DNA of 64,000 bases from contig CM059425.1 of the NCBI GenBank assembly GCA_030390025.1, positions 87,048,001 to 87,112,000 on the forward strand, written 5' to 3'. Both the position numbers and the translations under genes were made by a program. A model generated the notes under the pieces. It searched no databases, had not been told where the DNA came from, and saw only the letters and a list, made by a program, of their open reading frames with translations. The stretch is from Squalus acanthias (Eukaryota). Positions 1,050 through 57,622 of the stretch are shown piece by piece (positions within the stretch are counted from its first letter, which is position 1; every line of letters begins with the position of its first letter).

Positions 1050-3283
1050 AAATCTGAACAAAGCAAACTACATACGTATGAGAGGCGAGTTGGCTAAGGT
1101 CGGTTGGGAAACTAGATTAAAAGATATGATGGTAGATAAGCAATGGCAAACATTTAAAGAAATTATTCATAACTCACAATGAAAATACATTCCCTCAAGG
1201 AATAAAAAACCCCACGGGAAATATGATCCAACCGTGGCTAACAAGAGAAGTTAAAGATAGTATTAGCTTATAATGTTGCCAAAAAGAGTATTAAGCCTGA
1301 GGATTTGGGAGGATTTTGTAATTCAGCAAAGGAGATCCAAGAAATTGATAAAGAGAGAGAAAATAGAGTATGAGAGTAAACGAGCAAGAAACATAAAAAC
1401 AGATTGTAACAGCTTCTGCTGGTATATAAAAAGGAAGAGATTAGCGAAAGTAAACATGGGTCCCTTACAGGCAGAGACAGGAGAAATTATAATGGGGAAT
1501 AAGGAAATGGCAGAGACATCAATACTTTGTATCTGTCTTCATGGAAGAAGACACAAAAAACATTCTGGGAATAGTGGGGAACCAAGGGTCTAATGAGAAT
1601 GAGGAACTTAAAGAAATTAATTAGTAAAGAAATAGTACTGGAGAAATTAATGGGACTAAAAACCGACAATTCCCCTGCACCTACATCCTAGGGTTTTAAA
1701 AGAGGTGGCTACAGAGATAGTGGATGCATTGGTTTTGATCTTCCAGAATTTCCTAGATTCTAGAACGGTCCCCGCGGATTGGAAGGTAGCAAATGTAACC
1801 CCGCTATTCAAGAAAGGAGAGAGAGAGAAAACAGGGAACTATAGACCAGTTAGCCTGACATAAGTAGTAGGGAAAATGCTAGAATCTATTATTAGGGATG
1901 TGGTAACAGGGCACTTAGAACATCATAATATGATTGGACAGAGTCAACATGAATTTATGTCACGGAAATCGTGTTTGACAAATCTAATAAAGTTTGAGGT
2001 AGTAACTAGCAGGGTAGATAAGGGGGAACCAGTGGATGTAGTGAATTTGGATTTTCAGAAAGCGTTCGATAAGGTGCCACACAAGAGGTTATTTCACAAA
2101 ATTAGGGCTCATGGGATTGGGGTAATATATTAGCATGGGTTGAGGATTGGTTAATGGACAGAAAACAGAGAATAGGAATAAACGGGTCATTTTCGGGTTG
2201 GCAGGCTGTAACTAGTGGGGTACCGCAAGGATCAGTTATTTACAATCTATGTCAATAACTTAGATGAGAGGACCAAATGTAATGTATCCAAGTTTGCTGA
2301 CGATACAAAGCTAGGCGAGAAAGTAAGTTGTGAGGAGGATGAAAGAGGCTGCAAAGAGATATTGACAAGCTAAGTGAGTGGGTAAGAATAAGGCAGATGG
2401 AATATATTGTGGAGAAATGTTAAGTTATCCACTTTGGTAGGAAAAATAGAAAATCTGAATATTTTAAAATGGTGAGAGATTGGGAAATGTTGGTATTCAG
2501 AGGGACCTGGGTGTCCTTGTACACGAATCATTGAAAGTTAACATGCAGGTACAGCAAGCAATTAGGAAAGCAAATGGTATGTTAGCCTTTATTACAAAAG
2601 GATTGGAGTATAAGAGTAAAGAAGTCTTACTGCAATTGTATAGGGCCTTGGTGAGACCACACCTGGAGTATTGTGTACAGTTTTGGTCTATTTACCTAAG
2701 GAATGATATACTTGCCATAGAGGGAGTGCAACAAAGGTTCACCAGACTGATTCCTGGGATGGGGGGACTGTCCTATGAGGAGACTAGGCCTATATTCCCT
2801 AGAATTTGGAAGAATGAGAGGTGATCTTGCTCTTGCAGCGAGCAGGCACGGGCTCGATGGGCCGAATGGCCTCCTTCTGTGCTGTAACCATTCTATAATC
2901 CTATTTCATTGAAACATATAAAATTCTTACCGGGCTTGACAGGGTAGATGGTGGGAGGATGCTTCTCCTAACTGGGGAGTCTAGAACCAGGGGTCACAGT
3001 CCCAAAATAAGGGGTCGGCCATTTAGGACTGAGATGAGGAGAAATTTCTTCCCTCAGAGGGTGGTGAATCTTTGGAATTCTCTACCCCAGAGGGCTGTGG
3101 ATGCTCAGTCGTTGAGTATATTCAAGACAGAGATCGATAGATTTTTGAATATTAAGGGAATCAAGCTATATGGGAATAGTGCAGGAAAGTGGAGATGAGG
3201 TAGATGATCAGTCATGATCTTACTGAATGGTGGAGCAGGCTTGAAGGGCCGAATGGTCTACTCCTGCTCCTATTTCTTATGTT
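1050..3283 (+). mobile_element. CR1-clade LINE, 5'-truncated with degenerate ORF2 (RT); ~80 bp foreign insert at 2828-2906
   Basis: ORF pieces LDFQKAFDKVPHKRL, RPHLEYCVQFW and RNFFPQRVVNLWNSLP; FADD-like tttgctgacgat; CR1 3' tail. Confidence 0.93.
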
Positions 3284-3689
3284 TTTATGGTCTTCTTTGA
3301 AATAGTGCCATGGGATCTTTTACATCCACCTGAGAGGTCAGATGGGGCCTAATATCTCCTTTGTCAACTTCTGCCTGATTTCGCTCCTGTGAAGTGCCTT
3401 GGTTCATTACATTAAAGGCGCTATATAGTTTATTGTGGTTGTTGTATGAGAACAGGAAAGTTATTTTAATGGGAGACTTCAACCAACCAAATACAAATTG
3501 GGAAAAGCCCAAGCAGCTTAGAGTCAGCGCTGGTAAATGTAATGCATTACTCAGTGCATATAATGAGCTACAAGAAGCAGCGCTCATCTTGGCCTGGTAT
3601 TTGTACATGACCTCGACAACATTCAGGAGATGGAAGTTGCATCACTCCCTGGGGGACTGCAACCACGCAATGATCAGGATAAGAACATA

Positions 3690-5304: not shown

Positions 5305-6595
5305 TCAGCTGTGGCTCAGTGGGTAGCCTCTGAGTGAGAAGGGCATGGGTTCAAGTCCCACTCCATAGACTTCAGCACAGAATCCAGGCTGACACGCCAG
5401 TGCAGTGCTGAGGGAGTGCTGCACTGTCGGAGATACAGGGGGGAATTTTGCCGGCGCTCAGGGGGCGGGTTTAGAAGCGGGACTACTGGCTAAATTGCAA
5501 AGATTGACAGCGGGTCCCGAACCCGCTGTCAACCCGCCTCCATACAATCTTCCCAAGTGTCGGGCCCCCGATTTGCGCAGGGACCCGACACCTAGCGGCG
5601 GGAAGAGGATTATAGGCACTTAACTGCCTGTTAACAGGCAGTTAAAAGGCTTTTTCCAATTTTGCCAGGTCGACTGCGTGTTTCCCGACGTCCAGACACC
5701 ACGCCAGGGTAAGTGTGGTGCATTGATGACAGCTGCAGAAGTGATGTGAAGGATCCAATGGTACACTGGTGAGTTTCAGAGGTAAGAAAATGTTGGGGAA
5801 AGCATTTTTAATATATTTAGACTTTTCTGTGGGTAACAGGATTTGAATTGGCTGTCTAGTCCCACCTCATTGGGAGAACCTCTTTCACCAGTGACAAATC
5901 GCTTCTGTAACCTCACCTGCAGCTGCCATCTGTTTTATCCTAAGGAGAGAGTCACTGGATAACCTGGGCGCAAGGGCTCACCTTTGTACAGTGATTGGCA
6001 GTGTTTGCAGCACCTCAATGCTGTCAAACACTGAAAAATCATCTGTCAAAAGAAAATGTGCGTGTCCCCTTTAAGAAAACCGGCAGATGATGCGTCATCA
6101 ACTGACGTCATCTGATACCGGCTTTCTCTTAATTGGCCAGCAAGCCCGCAGGGCGGGCTTAACAAGGCTAATTGACGTAAAATTACGTCTGTGTGTCGGA
6201 CGTCGCTGGGGGTGGGACTAGAACCCGGAAGGCAGATGACTCGCTCCCAACTCGCACCGAAAGGTAAGATCGCGCCTATAGTCTTTCAAATGAGACGTTA
6301 AACTGAGGCCCTCTCAGGTGGCTGTAAAAGATTCCATGGCACTATTTCAAAGATGAGATGGGGAGTTCTCCCCAGTGTCCGGGCCAATATTTATCCCTCA
6401 ATCAACATCACTAAAACAGATTATCTGGTCATTATCACATTGCTGTTTGTGGGAGCTTGCTGTGTGCAGATTGACTGCAGTGTTTCCTACATTACAACAG
6501 TGACTAGACTTCAGAATGTACTTCATTGGCTGTAAAGCGCTTTGGGACACCGTGAGGTTGTGAAAGGAGCTATAGAAATGCAAGTCTTTCATTCT
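5305..6595 (+). mobile_element. tRNA-headed Deu-domain SINE (SacSINE1/AmnSINE1-like) split by an insertion at 5434-6280
   Basis: A box tggctcagtgg and B box ggttcaagtcc; SINE body resumes at gtctttcaaatgagacgttaaac. Confidence 0.85.
5434..6280. mobile_element. Non-autonomous DNA transposon (MITE-like) with degenerate TIRs and internal palindromes
   Basis: Cleanly interrupts a SINE; termini tacaggggggaattttgcc / ggtaagatcgcgcctata are partly inverted; no coding capacity. Confidence 0.65.
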
Positions 6596-7124
6596 TTTTA
6601 ACTGGAATCGTCAAGATGGTTTTGATCGGGTTGGGTAACTGCAAATATTACTTGAGTATGGAAAAATTCTTCAGAACAGATGCTATCAAGCAGACCAAAA
6701 ATATTTTGCCACCTTATTAATTAAAAGCACAGAGTGTGAGAGGATCGGGGATGGTGAACAATGAACTCTGGCATTGAGAATCAGTGAAAAATAAAACAAA
6801 CCTATTTAGGAATGGCGCCGAAAGTCAGGTAGGCTGAACAAATCAAAAGAACAAACAAAGAGACAGGAATACATCACAAAGCACAATGGAATTCAAGCTT
6901 GAAATTAAATCATACAATGCAGAGGAGACAGGGGAAGAAAGAATTGAGGCTTTTTCAGCATTGGTTTCGGAGAAACATAAAGGGCAGGTTTCAGGCAGTT
7001 GGGAAATGAGAGATAAAAGGGGAAGAGCCAAATAGAATGGGAAGAGATGACAAGCAATCTAATTAACTGCAGATTGGAGGAGAGAGCAAAGAACAGAGGT
7101 AAGGCGAACAAACGATATTATTGT

Positions 7125-26587: not shown

Positions 26588-26768
26588 GGGGCATAAACAC
26601 GTCTTGAGTGGCAGTGCAAATTGGGTGACAGTGATTCGGCAGCCTGTTTTGCACTCCACTTGGTTTTATTTTCCATTGAATGGTAAAGAAAATCGGGTGG
26701 CGTACAAAACAGGTTGATAAATCGCTATCACTCGTTTTGCGCTACCGCCCAAGACGGATTTATATCCC
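26588..26768. mobile_element. Fold-back MITE with ~70 bp imperfect inverted arms
   Basis: ggggcataaacacgtcttgagtggcagtgcaaa... is the approximate reverse complement of ...tttgcgctaccgcccaagacggatttatatccc. Confidence 0.75.
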
Positions 26769-26942
26769 AGAATCTCATTATTGCACCAACTCTTTCTCTA
26801 GTAGATACTTCTATAAATCTGTAGTGCTGTAGACTCTCCAGAGTGCATGATCCATGTAGTTAACAGGACCACTGTTGTGGCATTGGCAGAGAGACAGTTT
26901 TTCTCTGGGTTTCCCAACCTGGCCCTAGTACTGGGAGCACCC

Positions 26943-27352
26943 TGCTCAGTGGGTAGCACTCTCGCCTTGGAGTCAGAAGGTTGTGGCATCAAGTCCCACT
27001 CAGAGACTTGAACACATAATCTAGGCTAACAATCTAGTGCTGTACTGTTGGAGGTGCCATCTTTCAGATGCCATCTGTCCTCGGAGGTGGAAGTAAAAGA
27101 TCCACGGTACTATTCGAAGAAGAGCAGGGGTATTCTCCCGGTGTCCTGGTCAATATTTATCTCTCAACTAACACAACTAAAACAGATTCTCATATCATTA
27201 CCACATTGCTGTTTGTGGGAGCTTGCTGTGCGCAAATTGGCTGCCGTGTTTCCCTGAATTACAACAGTGACTACACTTCAAAAATACTTCATCTGCTATA
27301 AAGCGCTTTGGGATGTCCTGAGGTCATGAAAGGCTATATAAATGCAAGTTCT
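26943..27352 (+). mobile_element. Deu-domain SINE
   Basis: Head gctcagtgggtagcactctcgcc, body and tail. Confidence 0.85.
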
Positions 27353-27811
27353 TCCTTAAATTGAAGATTATTTTCAATATAAAGAGGAATACATCACTGA
27401 CTTCTCTGAAGTGGATTCTAATGAGCCTACATGAAAATGAAGGCATCAGACAGTATATCAATGCAGGAGAGTAATGTGTAAGAGGTAGATTTAGCAACGT
27501 TTACCAAAATCCAAGTTAAGTATAAAAGGCTCAACTCAAGTCCAATAACAGACTCCTCACATTCGATTTAGGAGTCTTAATGAATTCCTTATCTCTCAGT
27601 GCACATAACAGTGAGTATGGGAGTCAAACTGGACGCTTACTGTGCATACATAGCATGGATCTTCACCAGTCAGGGACACACATGCAGTGCATGACTTTCG
27701 ATCCACCTTTTTTTCTCCATTAAATTGTAGCACGATTTCCCACTATGTGCTCCAGCTAGACAAGGCTCCATGAGGGGAAGCACGCAATTGGATAGTTTAA
27801 TCCTAACTTGG

Positions 27812-28292: not shown

Positions 28293-28325
28293 CAATTGTA
28301 CATCTGGAATCGAGAATCTTCTCAC

Positions 28326-28682
28326 CTGGTTTCCAGCCCTGCTCCGTCTTCAAGCATCTCTCCAGTCAGCGTCTCCACATTGTAGAAGGCCTTCAGGATG
28401 CCCTGCAGTTCTTCTTTCCGAGCCTCGGGAAGGCTGTCGGCATGCAGCAAGGCCCGCGCTCCGGAACGCACCTGCCTGCGGACCGGGTCCTCCAGCAGCC
28501 GGACGCTTTCCTCGCACCCGATCGGCGCGCTGAACTCCTCGGCCAGCTGCTGCTTTAGGACATTGTCGTAATAGTTCGAGGCGGCGTGGCAGGCGGTGCA
28601 TAGGAGCAGGACATCGTGAGAATTGTGGTCTTTCATTTGGACCGGAAAGTGCCTGCGGTATTCATGGGGCACGATATTCTTC
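28326..28682 (-). CDS. EXD2: EXD2 coding exon: KNIVPHEYRRHFPVQMKDHNSHDVLLLCTACH...GLETR (HNH-like domain)
   Basis: Acceptor ttcttcag|G and donor ACCAG|gtgag; 357 nt; contains HNSHDVLLLCxxCH. Confidence 0.97.
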
Positions 28683-28856
28683 CTGAAGAAACACAAATCG
28701 TCGCAAGTTCGCAACTATTTTATCTAAAACTTGGTGAAAATGGATTATAAAAGGTTACATAAAATGACACCACAAGTCCCGGCCAGAATGGAGATGGTTG
28801 GGTGTCTCCCCCAACAATCACGCCTCAAGCAATTGCTGTAGTGACTGGGATTGAAT

Positions 28857-29275: not shown

Positions 29276-29869
29276 TGTAACTATCCTCCACTCACTGCAT
29301 GTTGCTGGAGAAATAATTCTTCTGTATTCGGGAGATTCTGTTTGCTGCAGCTTGAGTAAATTAAAACCATAAGAATCGCCTTGCCTCCAACTCATTGGCT
29401 GACACAGTGGTGTCAATATTCACTTTGTATTTAAAAAAAGCTTGATGGATTAAAAAAAAACACTCCATAAAGTGATATGGACAAGGGAGGTTCCATGTTC
29501 AATCTCATGAACCCCCCAGGGGAGTTTTAAAAAATGAGGCCAGGACTCCTCAAGTGCACTTGTGGCCATCAAGGGAGGACAGGATTCAGCCTGGTTGTCA
29601 TGCCTACTCATGATACAAAATAAATCCTACTGATATCTATTTTGACTCCAGGCGACATATATTACAGAGGGTGGTCCGTGCATGTCTTGGTGCGCTCTGC
29701 TCACTTGAGTGGGAGCAAACACTTCAAACAGCCTGACTCGAAGTTATACCCCAGAATCTCTTTATTGCACCAACTATCTCTTTTACAGCTACTTTTACAA
29801 TACTGTGGTGCTGTTGACTCTCCAGCGTGCATGATCCGCGCAGTTAACAGGACCACCAAATATTTCGGT

Positions 29870-31995
29870 TTATTATTCATTCAGGGGATGTGGGCATTGC
29901 TGGCAAGGCCAGCATTTATTGCCCATCCCTAATTGCCCTTGAGAAGATGGTGGTGAGCCGCCTTCTTGAAGCGCTGCAGTCCGTGTGGCGAAGGTACTCC
30001 CACAGTGCTGTTAGGGAGGGAGTTCCAGGATTTTAACCTAGCAACGATGAAGGAACGGCGATATACTTCCAAGTCACGATAGTGTGCAACTTGGAGAGGA
30101 ACTAGGAGGTGGTGGTGTTCTCATGCACCCGCTACCCTTGGCTTGGCGAGATGCTGCAGTGCATCTTGTAGATGGTACACACTGCAGCCACGTTGCGACG
30201 GTGGTGGAGGGAGTGAATGTTGAAGGTGGTAGATGGGGTGCCGATCAAACAGACTACTTTGTCCTGGACGGTGTCGAGCTTCTTGAGTGCTGGTGGAGCT
30301 GCAATCATCCAGGCACCGTGAGTGTATTCCATCACACTCATAACTTGTGCCTTGCCGCAGAATACCCAGCCTCTGACCTGCTCTTGTAGCCACAGTATTT
30401 ATGTGGTTGGGCCAGTTAAATTTCTGGTCAATGGTGATCCCCAAGATGTTGATGGTGGGGGATTTGATGATGATAATACCATTGAATGTGAAGGGGAGAT
30501 AGTTAGATTCTCTCTAGTTGGAGATGGTCATTGCCTGTCACTTGTGTGGCTCAAATGTTACTTGTTACTTATCAGCCCAAACCTGGATGTTGTCCAGGTC
30601 TTGCTGCATGCGGGCATGGACTGCTTCATTATCTGAGGAATTGTGAATAGAACTAAACACTGCAATCATCAGCGAACATCCTGACTTCTGGCCTTATGAT
30701 GGAGGGAAGGTCATTGATGAAGCAGCTGAAGATGCTTGGACCTAGGACACTGCCCTGAGGAACTCCTGCAGCAATGTCCTGGGGCGGAGATGATTGGCCG
30801 CCAACAACCACAGCCATCGTCCTTTGTGCTAAGTATGACCCCAGCCAGTGGAGAGTTTTCCCCCTGATCTCCATTGACTTCAATGTTAATAGGGCTCTTT
30901 GGCGCAACACTCGGTCAAATGCTGCCTTGATGTCAAGGGCAGTCACTCTCACTTCTGGAATTCAGCTCTTTTGTCCATGTTTGGATCAAGGCTGTAATGA
31001 GGTTTGGAGCCAAGTGGTCCTGGCGGAACCCAAACTGAACATTGGTGAGCAGGTTGTTGGTAAGTAAGTGCTGTTTGATTTCACTGTTGACAACACCTTC
31101 CATCACTTTGCTGATGATTGAGAATAAGCTGATGGGGCGGTAATTGTTCGGATTGGATTTTCAACTTTGTCAGGTAGATACCAGTGTTGTATCTCTACAG
31201 GAACAGCTTGGCTACAGGCATGGCTAGTTCTGGAGCACAAGTCTTCAGCACAACAACCAGTGTGTTGTCGGGTCCCATAGCCTTTTCTGGAGCCAGTGCG
31301 CTCAGCCGTTTCTTGATGTCACATGGAATGAGACTTTGAGGACTCCCAGGGCCACTCCCCCCTGAGTATATACCATTGTGCTGCCACCTCTAGTGGGTCT
31401 GTCCTGCCGGTGGGACAGGACATACCCAGGGATGGTGATGGAGGCGTCTGGGACATTGGCTGAAAGTCATACTCACAGAATCATACCTATGTCAGGCTGT
31501 TACTTGATTAGTTTGGGGGACAGCTTTCCCAATTTTGGCACAAGTCCCCAGATGTTAGTGAGGAGGACTTTGCAGGGTCGACTGGGCTGAGTGTGCCTTT
31601 GTTGTGTCCGAATGCCTAGGTCGTAGCCGAGTGGTCCGTCCGGTTTTATTCTTATTGTATTTTTTTGTAGTGGTTTGTTATAACTGAGTGGCTTGCTAGG
31701 CCATTTCAGAGGGCAATTAAGAGTCAACCACGTTGCTGTGGGTCTGAGTGACATACAGGCCAGACCAGGTAAGGACGGCAGGTTTCCTTTCCTGAAGGAC
31801 ATTAGTAAACCAGTTTTTATGATAAACCGTTAGCTTCATGGTCACTTTTACTGATACTAGCTTTTATTCCAAATTTAACTAATTAACTGAATTGAAATTC
31901 ACAAACTGCCATGGTAGGGTTTGAACTTGCGTCTCCGGATTATTAGCCCAGGGTTTTGGATTACTATTCCAGCAACATAACCACTATGTACCTAT
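29870..31995 (-). mobile_element. Non-LTR retrotransposon (CR1/L2/Crack group): tRNA-like 5' head, APE N-terminus, internal deletion near 31325, RT and 3' tail
   Basis: KVLLTNIWGLVPKLG (APE start), LDIKAAFDRV, GVPQGSVLGP, MFADD; head carries A/B-box-like motifs. Confidence 0.88.
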
Positions 31996-32115
31996 ATAAG
32001 CCTACCAGTCTACATTGTTGTGGCACTGGCAGAGAGCCAGCTTTTCTCTGGGTTTCCCAACCTGGCCCTGGTGCTGGGAGCACTCTGGTTTACTTGGCAA
32101 ACACGATGAGCTGGT

Positions 32116-32378: not shown

Positions 32379-32649
32379 CAGCACATCAACACACTTATGT
32401 TGTAATGTTCTGATACATTCAAACCAGTCCAGAGGCTGATCTGGAAGTGCTCGAGCCATGAAAAGCTGAGGGATACACGCAGGCTAATTCATGACAACCA
32501 TCACTCGAACGGCTCAGACCGGGCAAAATATCCCAACATGCTCTTCGGTAAATAATACAGATGGGAGTGTACTTTGTACAGAACGCATCTATGTAAGCCA
32601 TGTGGGGGGGCGAGTAAAACGCTGTAATGTTTAGCACTCAAGAGCACAC

Positions 32650-32785
32650 CTGATGTAAGACTCTCTCCTGCCGCACACGACACAGAGGTTCTCCTTGGTT
32701 GTCAGGTAGTAGTCTTGCTGAGACTCGGGTCTTCCCGACGGTTCAAACTTCAACTTCACAACAAATGGGTCCTCGTTGATGAGCT
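32650..32785 (-). CDS. EXD2: EXD2 coding exon (not shown in the ORF track): ELINEDPFVVKLKFEPSGRPESQQDYYLTTKENLCVVCGRRESYIR
   Basis: Translated by hand. Acceptor catttag|AG and donor ATCAG|gtgtgc; 136 nt; phases fit; carries the CxxC of the HNH-like domain. Confidence 0.96.
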
Positions 32786-32904
32786 CTAAATGAAGAACAG
32801 ACGCCTGTTCAGATTCAAGATGCAGTACTTTTAGACTTGAGGAACTAAAACAGATCTCTTGGCCTTCTTGGCCATACCACAGTCAATAATTTACAGCAGA
32901 TTTT

Positions 32905-34138
32905 TTTTTTGTTCATGGGATGTGAGCGTCGCTGGCAAGGCCAGCATTTATTGCCCATCCCTAATTGCCCTCGAGAAGGTGGTGGCGAGCCGCCGCCTTG
33001 AACCGCTGCAGTCCGTGTGGTGAAGGTACTCCCACTGTGCTGTTAGGTAAGGAGTTTGACCCAGCGACGATGAAGGATCGGCGATATACTTCCAAGTCAG
33101 GATGGTGTGCGACTTGGAGGGGAACTTGGAGGTGGTGGTGTTCCCAAGCGTCTGCTGCCCTTGTCCTTCTAGGTGGAAGAGGTCGCGGGTTTGGGAGGTG
33201 CTGCCGAAGAAGCCTTGGCGAGTTGCTGCAGTGCATCTTGTAGATGGTACACACTGCAGCCACGGTACGCCGGTGGTGGAGGGAGTGAATGTTTAAGGTG
33301 GTGGATGGGGTGCCAATCAAGCGGGCTGCTTTGTCTTGGATGGTGTCGAGCTTCTTGAGTGTTGTTGGAGCTGCACTCATCCAGGCAAGTGGAGAGTATT
33401 CCATCACACTCCTGACTTGTGCCTTGTAGATGGTGGAAAGGAGTCAGGAGGTGAGACACTCGTCGCAGAATACCTAGCCTCTGATCTATTCTTGTTGCCA
33501 CAGTATTTATGTGGCTGGTCCATTTAAGTTTCTGGTCAATGGTGACCCCCAGGATGTTGATGGTGGGGGATTCGGCAATGGTAATGTCGTTGAATGTCAA
33601 GGGGCGGAGGTTAGACGCTCGCTTGTTGGAGATAGTCATTGCCTGGCACTTGTGTGGCGCGATTATTACCTGCCACTTATCAGCCCAAGCCTGAATGTCG
33701 TCCAGGTCTTGCTGCATGCGGGCATGGACTGATTAATTATCTGAGGAGTTACAAATGGCTCTGAACACTGTGCAGTCATCAGCGAACATCCCCACTTCTG
33801 ACCTTATGATGGAGGGAAGGTCATTGATGAAACAGCTGAAGATGGTTGGGCCTAGGACACTGCCCTAAGGAACTCCTGCAGCGATGTCCTGGGGCTGTGA
33901 TGATTGACCTCCAACCACCACAACCATCTTCTTTTGTGCTTGGTAGGACTCCAGCCAGTGGAGAGTTCCCCCCCCCCCCCCCAATTCCCATTGACTTCAG
34001 TTTTACTAGGGCTCCTTGATGCTACCCTCGGTCAAATGCTACCTTGATGTCAAGGGCAGTCACTCTCACCTCACCTCTGGAATTCAGCTCTTTTGCCCAT
34101 GTTTGGACCAAGGCTGTAATGAGGTCTGGAGCCGAGTG
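32905..34138 (-). mobile_element. LINE of the same family as 29870-31995, 5'-truncated (RT C-terminal half)
   Basis: QQDLDDIQAWADKWQV; EYSPLAWMSAAPTTLKKLDTIQDKAARLIG; A-rich tail. Confidence 0.9.
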
Positions 34139-45902: not shown

Positions 45903-47950
45903 TTTTTTTTAATATTCGTTCATGGGATGTGGGCGTCGCTGGCAAGGCCATCATTTATTGCCCATCCCTAGCTGCCATTGAGAAGGTGGTGGTGAGCCGC
46001 CTTCTTGAACCGCTGCAGTCCGTGTGGTGATGGTACTCCCACAGTGCTGTTAGGGAGGGAGTTCCAGGATTTTGACCCAGCGACGACAAAGGAACAGCGA
46101 TTTACTTCTAAGTCAGGATGGTGTGTGACTTGGAGGGGAACTTGGAGGTGGTGGTGTTCCCATGCGCCTGCTGCCCTTGTCCTTCTAGGTGGAAGAGGTC
46201 GCGGATTTGGGAGGTGCTGCCGAAGATGACTTGGCGAGTTGCTGCAGTGCATCTTGTAGATGGTACACACTGTAGCCACGGTACGCCGGTGGTGGAGGGA
46301 GGGAATGTTTAAGGTGGTGGATGGGGTGCCAATCAAGCGGGCTGCTTTGTCTTGGATGGTGTCGAGCTTCTTGAGTGTTGTTGGAGCTGCACTCATCCAG
46401 GCAATTGGAGAGTATTCCATCACGCTCCCAACTTGTGCCTTGTAGATGGTGGAAAGGCTTTGGGGAGTCAGGAGGTGAGACACTCAGCCTCTGACCTGCT
46501 CTTGTTGCTACAGTATTTATGCGGCTGGTCCAGTTAAGTTTCTGGTCAATGGTGATTCCCCCAGGATATTGATGGTGGGGGATTCGGCGATGGTAATGTC
46601 GTTGAATGTCATGGGGCGGTGGTTAGACGCTCGCTTGTTGGAGATAGTAATTGCCTGGCACTTATGTGGCGTGAATGTTACCTGCCACTTATCAGCCCAA
46701 GCCTGAATGTCGCCCAGGTCTTGCTGCATGCGGGTATGGACTGCTTCATTATCTGAGCAGTTGCGAATGGCACTGAACACTGTGCAATCAGCGAACATCC
46801 GCACTTCTGACCTTATGATGGAGGGAAGGAGCAGCTGAAGATGGTTGGGCCTAGGACACTGCCCTGAGGAACTCCTGCAGCGATGTCCTGGGGCTGTGAT
46901 GATTGACCTCCAACAACCACAACCATCTTCCTTTATGCCAGTGGAGAGTTTTCCCCCCCCCGATTCCCATTGACTTCAGTTTTACTCGGGCTCCTTGATG
47001 CCACACTCGGTCAAATGCTGCCTTGATGTCAAGGGCAGTCACTCTCACCTCATCTCTGGAATTCAGCTCTTTTGTCCATGTTTGGACCAAGGCTGTAATG
47101 AGGTCGGGAGCTGAGTGGTCCTGGCAGAACCCAAACTTAGCATCAGTGAGCAGGTTATTGGTGAGTAAATGCTGCTTGATAGCGCTGTCGACAACACCTT
47201 CCATCACTTTGCTGATGATTGAGAGTAGACTGATGGGATGGTAATTGGCCGGACTGGATTTGTTACTTTTTGTGGACAGGACATACCTGGGCTATTTTCC
47301 ACATTGTTGGATAGATGCCAGTGTTATAGCTGTACTGGAACAGCTTGGCTGGAGGTGCGGCTAGATCTGGAGCACAAGTCTTCAGCACGACAGCCGGAAT
47401 GTTGTTGGGGCCCGCAATCTCTGCTGTATCGAGTGCGCTCAGCCGTTTCTTGATATCACATGGAGTGAATCGAATTGGCTGAAGACTGACTTCTGTGGTG
47501 GCGGGGACCTCAGGAGGAGGCCCAGATGGATCATCCACTCGACACTTCTGGCTGAAGATGGTTGCAAACTCTTCAGCTTTGTCTTTTGCACTCGCATGCT
47601 GGGCTCCACCATCAGTGAGGATGGGAATAGTCATGTAGCCTCCTCCTCCTATTAGTTGTTTAATGGTCCACCACCATTCATGACTGGATGTGGCAGGACT
47701 GCAGAGCTTTGATCTGATCCGTTGATTGTGGGATCGCTTAGCTCTGTCTATAGCTTGCTGCTTCTGTTTTTTTTAGCATGCATGTAGTCCTGTGCTGCAG
47801 CTTCCCTAGATTGGCACCTCATTTTTAGGTACGCCTGGTGCTGCTCCTGGCATGCTCTTCTGCACTCCTCATTGAACCAGGGTTGGTCCCCTGGCTTGAT
47901 GGTAATGGTAGAGTGAGGGATATGCCGGGCCATGAGGTTACAGATTGTGG
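45903..47950 (-). mobile_element. LINE of the same family as 29870-31995, longest copy, inserted in an L2 (45800-45900 plus 47951-48635, +)
   Basis: PWFNEECRRA, GPNNIPAVVLK, WKIAQVCPVHKK, LDIKAAFDRVWH; the L2 resumes after the insertion. Confidence 0.92.
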
Positions 47951-54029: not shown

Positions 54030-54820
54030 CAAAGACTTGCATTTCTATAGTGCCTTTCACGATCTCTGGAAGTACCAAAGCACTTTTTTGAAGTGTAGTC
54101 ACTGTTGTAATGCTGGAAACGCAGCAACCAATTTCCACACAGCAAGCTCCCACAAACAGCAATCTGATAATGACCAAATAATCTGTTTTTAAGCGATGTT
54201 GGTTGAGGGTTTTAAAATTTATTCACAGGATATGGGCGTTGCCAGCAAGGCCAGCATTTATTGCCTATCCCTAATTTCCCTCAAGAAGGTGGTGCCTTCT
54301 TGAATACAACTGAGTGGCTTGCTAGGCCATTTCAGAGGGCAGTTAAGTGTCAACCACATTGCTGTGGGTCTGGAGTCACATATAGGCCAGACCGGGTAAG
54401 GATGGCAGATTTCCATTAGTGGGTTATTAGTTTCACTAGCTTTTTATTCCAGATTTATTTAATTAAATTTAAATTCCCCAGCTGCCATGTTGGGATTTGA
54501 ACTCATGTCTCCGGATCGTTAGTCCAGTCCAGGATTACTAGTCCCGTAAAATAACCACTATGCTACCGTACCCCCTATTAGCCAGGGCACTGGGGAAACT
54601 CCCCAGCTCTTCAAATTGTCCCGTGGGATCTTTTATGCCCGTCTGAGAGGGAAGACAGGACCTCGGTTTAAATTCTGATCTGAAATGTGGCACCTCCGAC
54701 CCAGCCGCACTCCCTCAGTACTGCACTGGAGTGTCAGCCTGGATTATGTGCTGAAGGCTCTGGAGTGGTACTTGAACCCATGACCTTCTGACTCAGAGGT
54801 GAAAGTGTTACCACTGACAC
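54030..54820 (-). mobile_element. Deu-domain SINE interrupted by a second SINE (54210-54575)
   Basis: Deu body breaks at ggttgaggg and resumes at tattagccaggg. Confidence 0.85.
54210..54575 (-). mobile_element. tRNA-headed bipartite SINE (5' head plus 3' tail of the 29870-31995 LINE family)
   Basis: A box TAGCATAGTGG (54565-54555) and B box GAGTTCAAATCC (54504-54493); 54305-54575 aligns to 31680-31995 and 54215-54304 aligns to 29872-29970. Confidence 0.85.
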
Positions 54821-55404: not shown

Positions 55405-57622
55405 GTGCATTTATATCGCACCCTTCACAACCTCAGGATGTCCCAAAGCGCTTTACAGCCAAAGAAGTACTTTCGAAGTGTTGTCACTGTTGTAATGTAG
55501 GAAACGAGGCAGATAATTTGCGCACAGCAAGATTCCACAAACAGCAATGCGATAATGACCAGATAATCTGTTTTAGTGATGTTGGTTGAGGGATAAATAT
55601 TGAACAGGACACTGGGGAGAACTCCCCTGCACTTCTTCGAATAGTCCTATGGGATCTTTGCATCTACCTAAGAGAGCAGATGGGGCTTCGGTTTATCGAC
55701 TCATCTGAAATACAGCACCTCCCACAATGCAGCACTGAGTGTGTCAGCCTAGATTTTATCCTCAAGTCTCTGGGGTGCGATTTGAACCCACAATCTTCTG
55801 ACTCAGAGGCGAGAGTGCTACCAACTGAGCCATGGCTGACATCTTCGGTCAGGCGATATACATTTAGCAGTACAGTGGACAGCGTGACACTCGCACTTCT
55901 GCAACCGACTGCACGGCATCAAGGTAAGAGTGTCTAGAATGAACTGGCGAGTGATTCAGTGGGTAAATGCACCACCCAAGCCAGGTGTTGAGCCACACAG
56001 GCTGAGGAAGCCCCTGGTTCAGTCCCTGGTCTGTGTTTTGGTAGCTAATCTCAGATATGCCATGTGAGCCATAATTGGCCTGTTTCACAGCTTTGGGATG
56101 GGGTGGGGGGGGGGGGGCAGTGGGATCCTATTCCTGATCAGCATTGCTAGAAAATGCACACACATGATTTGAGCCCATGAATACAGGTGAAGAATTTACT
56201 GTACAAATATTGTAGAAGCCCTACAACCCTCAGATCTCTGCATTCCTTTAATTCTGGCCTCTTGCGCATCACCGATTTCCTTTGCTCCCCAATTGACGGC
56301 CGTTCCTTCAGATACCTAGGCCCTAAGCTCTGGAATTCCCTCCCTAAACCTCTCTGCCTTGCCTCGCCTCCTTTACATCACTCTTTAAAATCTAACTCTT
56401 TGACCAAGCTTTCGGATACCTGTACCAACATCTCTATGTGGCTCAGTGTCAAATTTTGTCTGATAATGCACCTGTGAAGCACCTTGGGATGTTTTACTAC
56501 GTTAAAGGTGCTTTATAAATGCAAGTTGTTAATGTTAAACAGACGTTTGCACAACAGGGTAGCTGAGTGGACTAGCAGCCCAGAGCTCAAGTGTTCAAAT
56601 GCCACGATGGCAAATTGTAAAATTGATTAATTTAATAAATGCGGTAACTTGCAGACAAGAACTTGCATTTATAGTGTGCTTTTAATGTAGAAAAACATCC
56701 CAAGGCCGCTCTCAGAGGCAATCATCAAAAAAAGGATGCTGAGCCAAAGGAGATATTAAGAGGGATTAGCAACATAAACTGACCAAAATGACCATGAAAG
56801 TTGAAAATAGTCATTAAAAACCCAAGTGGCTCACTAAAGTCCTTCAGGGAAGGGAACCTGTCACCCTTACTCGGTCTGGTGACAACAGTTCCACACAACA
56901 TGCTGAATCTCGATGTCCTCAGGGCAACTAGTGATGGCAATAAATACGGCCTTACCAGTGTCAGCCACATCCCAAGAACAAATAAAATAACAAGAACATT
57001 CGTCATGTAGTTTTCTTTGACTTGATAGCTACCCACAAGTAGTACAAATGAAATCAGGAGTTCATTGCTTGGAGAATCATTGGCACAGACCTGCATCCCT
57101 TTACTCTATGTGCAACATCCTTCAAAGTCTCACGCCAAGCAAGACACTGATTGGGATTGCTGAAAACAAAGGAAAGAACCTGCATTCATATAGCGCCTTT
57201 CACGACCTCAGGATGTCCCAAAGCGCTTTACAGCCAATGAAGTACTTTTAAAGTGGAGTCACTGTTGTAATGTAGGAAACGCGCAGCCAATTTGCGCACA
57301 GCAAGCTCCCTCAAACAGCAATGTGATAATGACCAGATAATCTGTTTCAGTGATGTTGGTTGAGGGATAAATAATGGCCGGGACACCAGAGAGAACTCTC
57401 CTGCTCTTCTTCAAAATAGTGCCGTGGGATCTTTTACATCCAACAGAGAGTGTAGACTGGGCCTCAGTTCAACCTCTTAGCCGAAAGCGCCAACAGTGCA
57501 GCACTCCCTCAGTACTGCACTGGAGTGTTAGCCTGGATTATGTGCTCAAGTCTCTGGAGTGGAACCTGAACCCACGACCTTCTGACTCAGAGGCGAAATG
57601 GCTACCACTGAGCCACGGCTGA
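55405..57622. mobile_element. Deu SINEs (55405-55841 and 57172-57622, minus), an older SINE head (55945-56190), an L2 end (56220-56530) and a diverged bipartite SINE (56555-56990, +)
   Basis: Similarity to copies elsewhere in the window. Confidence 0.75.

Follow-up and report, generated by a model that had tools for sequence, protein, structure and literature searches.

The window analysed here is a stretch of 64,000 nt of the Squalus acanthias genome (assembly GCA_030390025.1, contig CM059425.1, forward-strand positions 87,048,001 to 87,112,000). On its minus strand, positions 31998-29869 hold a decayed copy of a 3.3-kb LINE family whose members consist of a tRNA-like head with A and B boxes, a 0.33-kb UTR, one 973-codon APE-RT frame, a stem-loop tail and a short A tail (Table 1). 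The parts noted in the sequence-only reading were all recovered when the positions were read directly. The A/B-box-like start on the minus strand comprises an A-box-like motif at 31990-31981, one base short relative to the family consensus, and a B box at 31926-31917. The tandemly duplicated anticodon-arm-like hairpin lies at 31972-31956 and 31951-31935. The endonuclease N terminus, placed about 420 nt after the start, begins with KVLLTNIWGL at 31571, 424 nt below 31995, and is followed by the reverse transcriptase, with its stop codon at 29931-29929, and by the 3' tail to about 29869.

The window head has no acceptor stem, and the copy is dead. Its N-terminal extension is frameshifted, its RT part carries stops and frameshifts, and an internal deletion of about 1 kb has removed consensus 677-1710, and with it the linker and what remained of the APE. 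Such losses are common in the family: 69 loci (L031-L099) had 25 internal deletions of at least 30 nt, many with short overlaps. Splicing was considered as their source and rejected, as none of the 25 was recurrent and 3 were loosely GT-AG.

Table 1. Positions in the window of the LINE copy, its relatives and the duplicate of its insertion site.
Feature	Position	Strand	Remarks
tRNA-like head	31917..31998	-	A box, D-arm-like stem, two tandem anticodon-arm-like hairpins, B box / T arm
Rest of 5' UTR	31678..31916	-	A-rich linker, then conserved body; end = consensus 328-329
Basic N-terminal extension of the single frame, ATG-less	31572..31677	-	tblastn; shared-allele test
APE endonuclease, N-terminal part	31336..31571	-	Exo_endo_phos_2 on family copy L060
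Reverse transcriptase and C-terminal part	29929..31331	-	RVT_1, E 1e-35 on family copy L055
3' UTR stem-loop with AATAAA (29920-29915) and short A tail	29869..29928	-	
5'-truncated copy of the Zenon family	32908..34138	-	consensus 2064-3304
5'-truncated copy of the Zenon family	45914..47950	-	consensus 1231-3305
SINE-like derivative	54215..54573	-	consensus 1-328 joined to tail, junction at 3210
Older diverged UTR-plus-tail short form	56789..56983	+	another junction; 77-82% to consensus
Uninterrupted local duplicate of insertion site	26760..26944		

The block had been described as interrupting a sequence that is intact at 26769-26940, and this is what the alignment gives: flanks 32087-32013 and 29856-29744 match the uninterrupted 26944-26760 at 91% and 83%, with a 3-nt overlap. 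The insertion-site sequence has only 3 matches in the genome, all in the window, so it is a local duplicate of which one copy was interrupted. About 30 extra bases lie between element and flanks, and no target-site duplication was found at this locus. The duplication spans about 190 nt, lies on either side of the exon-like frame at 28322-28714 and belongs to no repeat family. That frame and a second one at 32631-32882, both on the minus strand, flank the element on its own strand, so the element lies in an intron. The two frames are presumably EXD2-like. Atlas gave for them a chordate cluster (0.95) and a 3'-5' exonuclease cluster (0.91) with HNH-like features, and a PDB search with the neighbouring exon returned no match. 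The window also contains an abundant second SINE type with another tail, e.g. at 6371-6603 and 27000-27360 (families D7-D10 and D20), which is presumably the Deu-domain SacSINE1. The name SacSINE1 occurs in PMC5499810.

To follow the head through the genome, window 31380-31995 was used as a query. This returned 13,704 first-look candidates; the best 40 were scored, and all of these matched nearly the whole query. A CR1 insert used as control query returned no match. Thirty-nine other copies were fetched at 6.7 kb each. In this head-selected set all 39 copies had the head (shared by 37-38 of 38 others) and no upstream sequence in common; upstream bins were common to at most 8 of 38 others and came from unrelated repeats, and the tail lay downstream, within the stretch fetched, in 27 of 39. 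A consensus built from 22 of the 39 has 3,305 nt, made up of a 329-nt UTR, one frame of 973 codons and 57 nt of stop and 3' UTR; the copies are 89-97% identical to it. Of 26 complete copies, 15 begin at consensus base 1-2, and full-length copies begin 8 nt above the A box, the position typical of SINEs. Target-site duplications in the 26 complete copies showed no excess over shuffled pairs. Pfam found RVT_1 and Exo_endo_phos_2 on two copies, i.e., reverse transcriptase and endonuclease. One copy, L116:126-782, is much older and 67% identical to the consensus, which speaks for a long residence of the family in this lineage.

A search independent of the head was made with consensus 1720-2011, and 30 loci were examined, which are best matches rather than a random sample. 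Eleven reached the UTR, all 11 running into the same UTR and 8 of them to base 16 or less; 18 were truncated inside the frame and 1 was ambiguous. Among these 30 best matches no other 5' end was found (0 of the 11 reaching the UTR). No ORF1 was found in the copies examined, which have 329 nt above the frame and nothing common further upstream. The head, UTR, frame and tail thus move as one 3.3-kb unit. The suggestion that head and ORF arrived as one insertion is borne out by a head-APE join that is family-wide in the 39 other copies. The join is not limited to this locus, as it recurs in those 39 copies and in 11 of 11 head-independent loci that reach the UTR, and no full-length copy with an ORF1 or a different 5' UTR appeared among the copies examined. 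The proposed ORF1-less LINE family with a tRNA-like head therefore holds for the copies examined.

Selection on the frame was assessed with shared alleles, defined as those in at least 4 of the 39 head-selected copies with CpG changes removed. Shared non-CpG alleles were 55 synonymous to 33 non-synonymous, against 373 to 1079 for singletons (Fisher P 2.6e-12). The frame is under purifying selection in head-bearing copies. In 68 loci, head alleles 21, 26 and 32 were linked to alleles 2 kb downstream, the best pair being head allele 21 with allele 2060 (P 7.8e-6). Selection and linkage together indicate that the frame was functional in several source copies with the head, and that head and frame moved together.

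The tRNA likeness of the head was examined with Rfam. In the window copy's own decayed head no tRNA was found, and ARAGORN reported 0 tRNA genes in the whole window. Among 12 better-preserved loci tRNA was the sole match, found in 4, at the head, with 25-27 bits, which is below the gathering score of 29. The alignments comprise the D, anticodon and T arms, with the second hairpin in an insert between the latter two. The consensus carries a clean A box at 9 and a B box near 74 (A+B pattern match). Both boxes are present in 13 of 39 copies, the A box in 18 and the B box in 32, and both were found in 0 of 22 metagenome LINE contigs. The A-rich linker of the consensus UTR holds two AATAAA, at 121 and 132. 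No ribozyme or IRES family was found in the UTR by Rfam, and single-sequence folds of the UTR were uninformative. From the boxes we infer that the head may be a working Pol III promoter.

At the other end, the tail is a stem-loop with AATAAA that is followed by 0-5 T and then by a short run of A. This order resembles T+ SINEs, in which AATAAA is followed by a terminator (T4 or TVT3) before the A tail. Of 59 tails, 55 contain AATAAA, and 46 of 56 anchors end with at least four A. The T run before the A tail was classed in 46 tails as T0 (7), T1 (18), T2 (9), T3 (5), T4 (1) and T5 (6); 16 of the 46 fall in T3 and above or among the long-T tails kept apart ('other', 2). As T1 is the commonest class, the element does not end in a terminator that is fixed. 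Growth of T runs in short A tails is a known process after insertion (PMC8466645), and for this reason the T runs of the tails are not diagnostic. AATAAA with an A tail fits Pol II as well.

The first in-frame Met is residue 287 of the frame. An out-of-frame ATG near 358, present in 10 of 29 copies, was tried as a start and rejected, because it is missing in 19 of 29 and the shared alleles are non-synonymous in its frame. At consensus 363-440 the shared non-CpG alleles were synonymous in the main frame at 5 of 5 sites and in the other two frames at 0 of 5, and 16 of 42 singletons were synonymous in the main frame. Given the five synonymous alleles, the basic extension above the APE looks translated, with a start at about 330-365 that lacks AUG; this reading of the upstream extension as coding draws on 5 sites. 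At consensus 339, 49 copies had ACG (22), ACA (15), ATG (6) or other triplets (6), a pattern like that of other CpG sites. In many homologues a Met stands shortly before the APE motif, a weak indication, as gene callers force a start. At consensus 303-311 (window about 31704-31696), and thus 27 nt upstream of where the frame begins, lies a minimal in-frame ATG-GCC-stop, which by eye is present in all five species' consensuses; it could be an upstream micro-ORF for re-initiation.

The family also has short forms. A 0.42-kb family (30 loci) is consensus 1-328 joined to 3210-3305, including the last codons of the frame, so that consensus 328-329, where the UTR ends, is also the point where this SINE-like derivative meets the tail. 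Its head and that of the LINE share 98% identity; the derivative is short and non-coding, whereas the 3.3-kb element has a selected frame. The simplest reading is that the 0.42-kb form arose by internal deletion of the headed LINE. A less simple alternative runs the other way: a SINE may have supplied the 5' part, joined precisely where the frame begins, with loss of the AUG. The head-to-tail join was also found in contigs of other organisms (four contig sets whose type was guessed, and which are silent on start, strand and level).

The sense strand of the consensus is poor in T runs. Over 3,305 nt there are 0 T4 where 3.9 were expected (P 0.013) and 7 T3 where 20.3 were expected (P <= 0.0005), and A4 occurs 15 times with 14.3 expected. 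Under stricter nulls the deficit is no longer significant, with P values of 0.11 for a codon shuffle, 0.20 for a first-order and 0.58 for a second-order Markov model. C-ending codons are preferred throughout the element, and the deficit is partly explained by this codon bias. Two CR1 consensuses of the same genome showed no deficit (8 T4 in 1,720 nt and 5 T4 in 1,300 nt), nor did four single CR1 copies; T4 occurred in 37 of 37 long frames among 80 metagenome LINE loci, whose lowest T3 ratio was 0.65 against 0.31 for the Zenon element, with T at 0.22-0.37 in the controls against 0.19 in the element, so that none matches its composition. No shared allele creates T3 or T4, the element contains no TCTTT, TATTT or TGTTT, and its Phe content of 1.85% is lower than in all 77 homologues.

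Judging from these sequence features, we think it somewhat more probable than even that the family is an autonomous LINE whose RNA is made by Pol III from the A and B boxes and translated without an AUG. On this reading Pol III would start at base 1 and, for want of a terminator, run through all 3.3 kb, ending at the T(n)A(n) stretch or past it; like the T+ SINEs of mammals, the transcript could then be polyadenylated by way of the AATAAA in its tail. Lacking a cap, the RNA would need cap-independent translation, beginning at a codon around consensus 330-365, with ACG at 339 as one candidate. Its product would recognise the 3' stem-loop and reverse-transcribe the RNA that encodes it by target priming, with the 0.42-kb head-plus-tail derivative as a second template. 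Template switching at the start of the frame or upstream of it, probably a single event in an ancestor of sharks and rays, would have supplied the head. In L1 assays, Pol III-made elements need only ORF2p, and Pol III transcription was tied to ORF1 independence (PMC2666806).

The most serious alternative, which we hold to be unlikely though by no means negligible, accepts a tRNA-derived, family-wide head but has the coding RNA made by Pol II, from a cryptic UTR promoter or by host read-through. The boxes would then serve only the SINE-like derivative or be a relic, and the T-run deficit would be a by-product of the C-ending codons. Uncapped RNA is poorly translated, translation normally needing a cap, which favours this alternative, as do the AATAAA and A tail described above and the codon-shuffle result. 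Moreover, a poly(A) tail and lack of ORF1 are also found in headless Zenon (PMC13343379), and in Kojima 2018 LINEs of both the autonomous and the bipartite kind count as Pol II units (PMC5786205). Against a Pol II transcript stand full-length copies that begin at the SINE-type position, boxes kept in five species (by eye), the two AATAAA in the UTR, the lack of recurrent splice-type deletions, and a T3 deficit that far exceeds all controls.

Divided labour, in which Pol III RNA is copied and the protein comes in trans from capped Pol II transcripts of other copies, seems to us rather improbable. It would account for the boxes, for the scarcity of T runs and for the large fraction of copies that are full-length, with no need for uncapped translation, and the SINE-like derivative does show that mobilisation in trans occurs. 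But purifying selection on head-bearing lineages is easiest to understand if a copy is moved by its own protein, and the missing AUG is left unexplained. That the locus is a chance SINE beside a truncated LINE, or that the family is a chimera without autonomy, mobilised by an unseen Zenon whose 5' end is different, is very improbable and already largely refuted. A SINE-like form with the same head does occur in many copies, and a rare other 5' end could have escaped searches of which the best 40 matches each were scored; against this stand the uniform 5' end in 11 of 11 loci, the selection and linkage, and the same structure in five species.

The sequence-only reading left open whether the family was already in repeat libraries. 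It has been published as SquAca_Zenon-1 (PMC13343379), in a library that contains SquAca_Zenon-1 to -3 and CarCar, HypSab, RhiTyp and ScyCan_Zenon-1 (Table S2). Within the first 400 nt, SquAca_Zenon-1 shows by eye about 9 differences from our consensus, six of which are alleles shared among copies, and no sequence difference beyond these sites; its length is 3,314 against 3,305 plus tail. The same head opens the consensuses of five elasmobranch species (first 400 nt, by eye), and those of CarCar, HypSab, RhiTyp and ScyCan have no T4 in that stretch. Zenon in elasmobranchs was reported to have no ORF1 and a poly(A) tail (PMC13343379). Set against the premise that CR1-group LINEs normally carry ORF1, the absence of ORF1 is therefore not new here, being a general Zenon trait. 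Both the sequence of the family and its ORF1-less structure are already in print. What we have not found in print is the family-wide tRNA head on an autonomous element, the T-run deficit and the missing AUG. The words 'tRNA', 'promoter', 'polymerase III' and 'start codon' are absent from the available main text of PMC13343379, and 'tRNA', 'promoter', 'pol III' and 'polymerase' from the available preprint. The available parts of PMC3747384, PMC5499810, PMC11481361 and 10.1101/443036 concern other shark or bivalve SINE-LINE pairs or merely mention Zenon. A tRNA-headed autonomous LINE was not found in the literature searched; Repbase, Dfam, Repbase Reports and subscription journals lay outside the search and may hold a note of one.

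LINEs are taken as Pol II units, and SINEs as Pol III units without coding capacity. If the family is indeed run by Pol III, this split of polymerases between LINEs and SINEs would be broken, long Pol III RNA would be translatable in a vertebrate, and the usual route of SINE birth would be reversed, with the head on the LINE first. At 3.3 kb and with a single protein, the family would also be a compact system in which to ask how the transcribing polymerase determines whether ORF1 is needed.

In a quick RT tree, built without a named Zenon reference, the element stood apart from the genome's CR1 and grouped with L155 and unnamed single-frame homologues (support 99). It is about 30% identical to the CR1 copies in the window and differs in tail and clade, so it is not a canonical vertebrate CR1. 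The latter is the HER1 type, with an RT in the vertebrate CR1 clade, a microsatellite tail and an esterase ORF1 or descent from an element that had one. The Zenon label rests on the by-eye match to SquAca_Zenon-1 (PMC13343379). Hagfish and coelacanth Zenon and an invertebrate-type Zenon-like frame (L155 = P0016) likewise have a single APE-RT frame. By eye, however, the first 400 nt of hagfish and coelacanth Zenon have no tRNA-like head and several T runs, and L155 has a Met before the APE, 20 T4 runs and neither an A+B pattern nor an Rfam tRNA. The 5' region of this headless relative (L155:1-950) is long, contains a direct repeat and gave no match in Rfam. Its first part looked to us like an RTE-type 5' UTR.

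The shark derivative is similar to Persaeus, the SIDE of lepidopteran Zenon, in combining the Zenon 5' UTR, ORF end and tail (PMC6740152). Persaeus has no tRNA homology or Pol III promoter, whereas the shark derivative inherits both boxes from its parent LINE. The tRNA-derived T+ SINEs B2, Dip and Ves share with the shark element an A/B-box head, AATAAA, a variable T run and a short A tail (PMC8466645); they are short, non-coding and L1-dependent, whereas the shark element encodes its own APE-RT and its terminator is not fixed. In the SINEs formed by a tRNA head and a bipartite LINE (Kojima 2018, PMC5786205), a small-RNA head was added to LINE-derived 5' and 3' parts by template switching, and in the available text of PMC5786205 and PMC7245038 such heads are described on deleted LINEs only. 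There the head sits on an internally deleted LINE, whereas in the shark the full coding LINE carries it.
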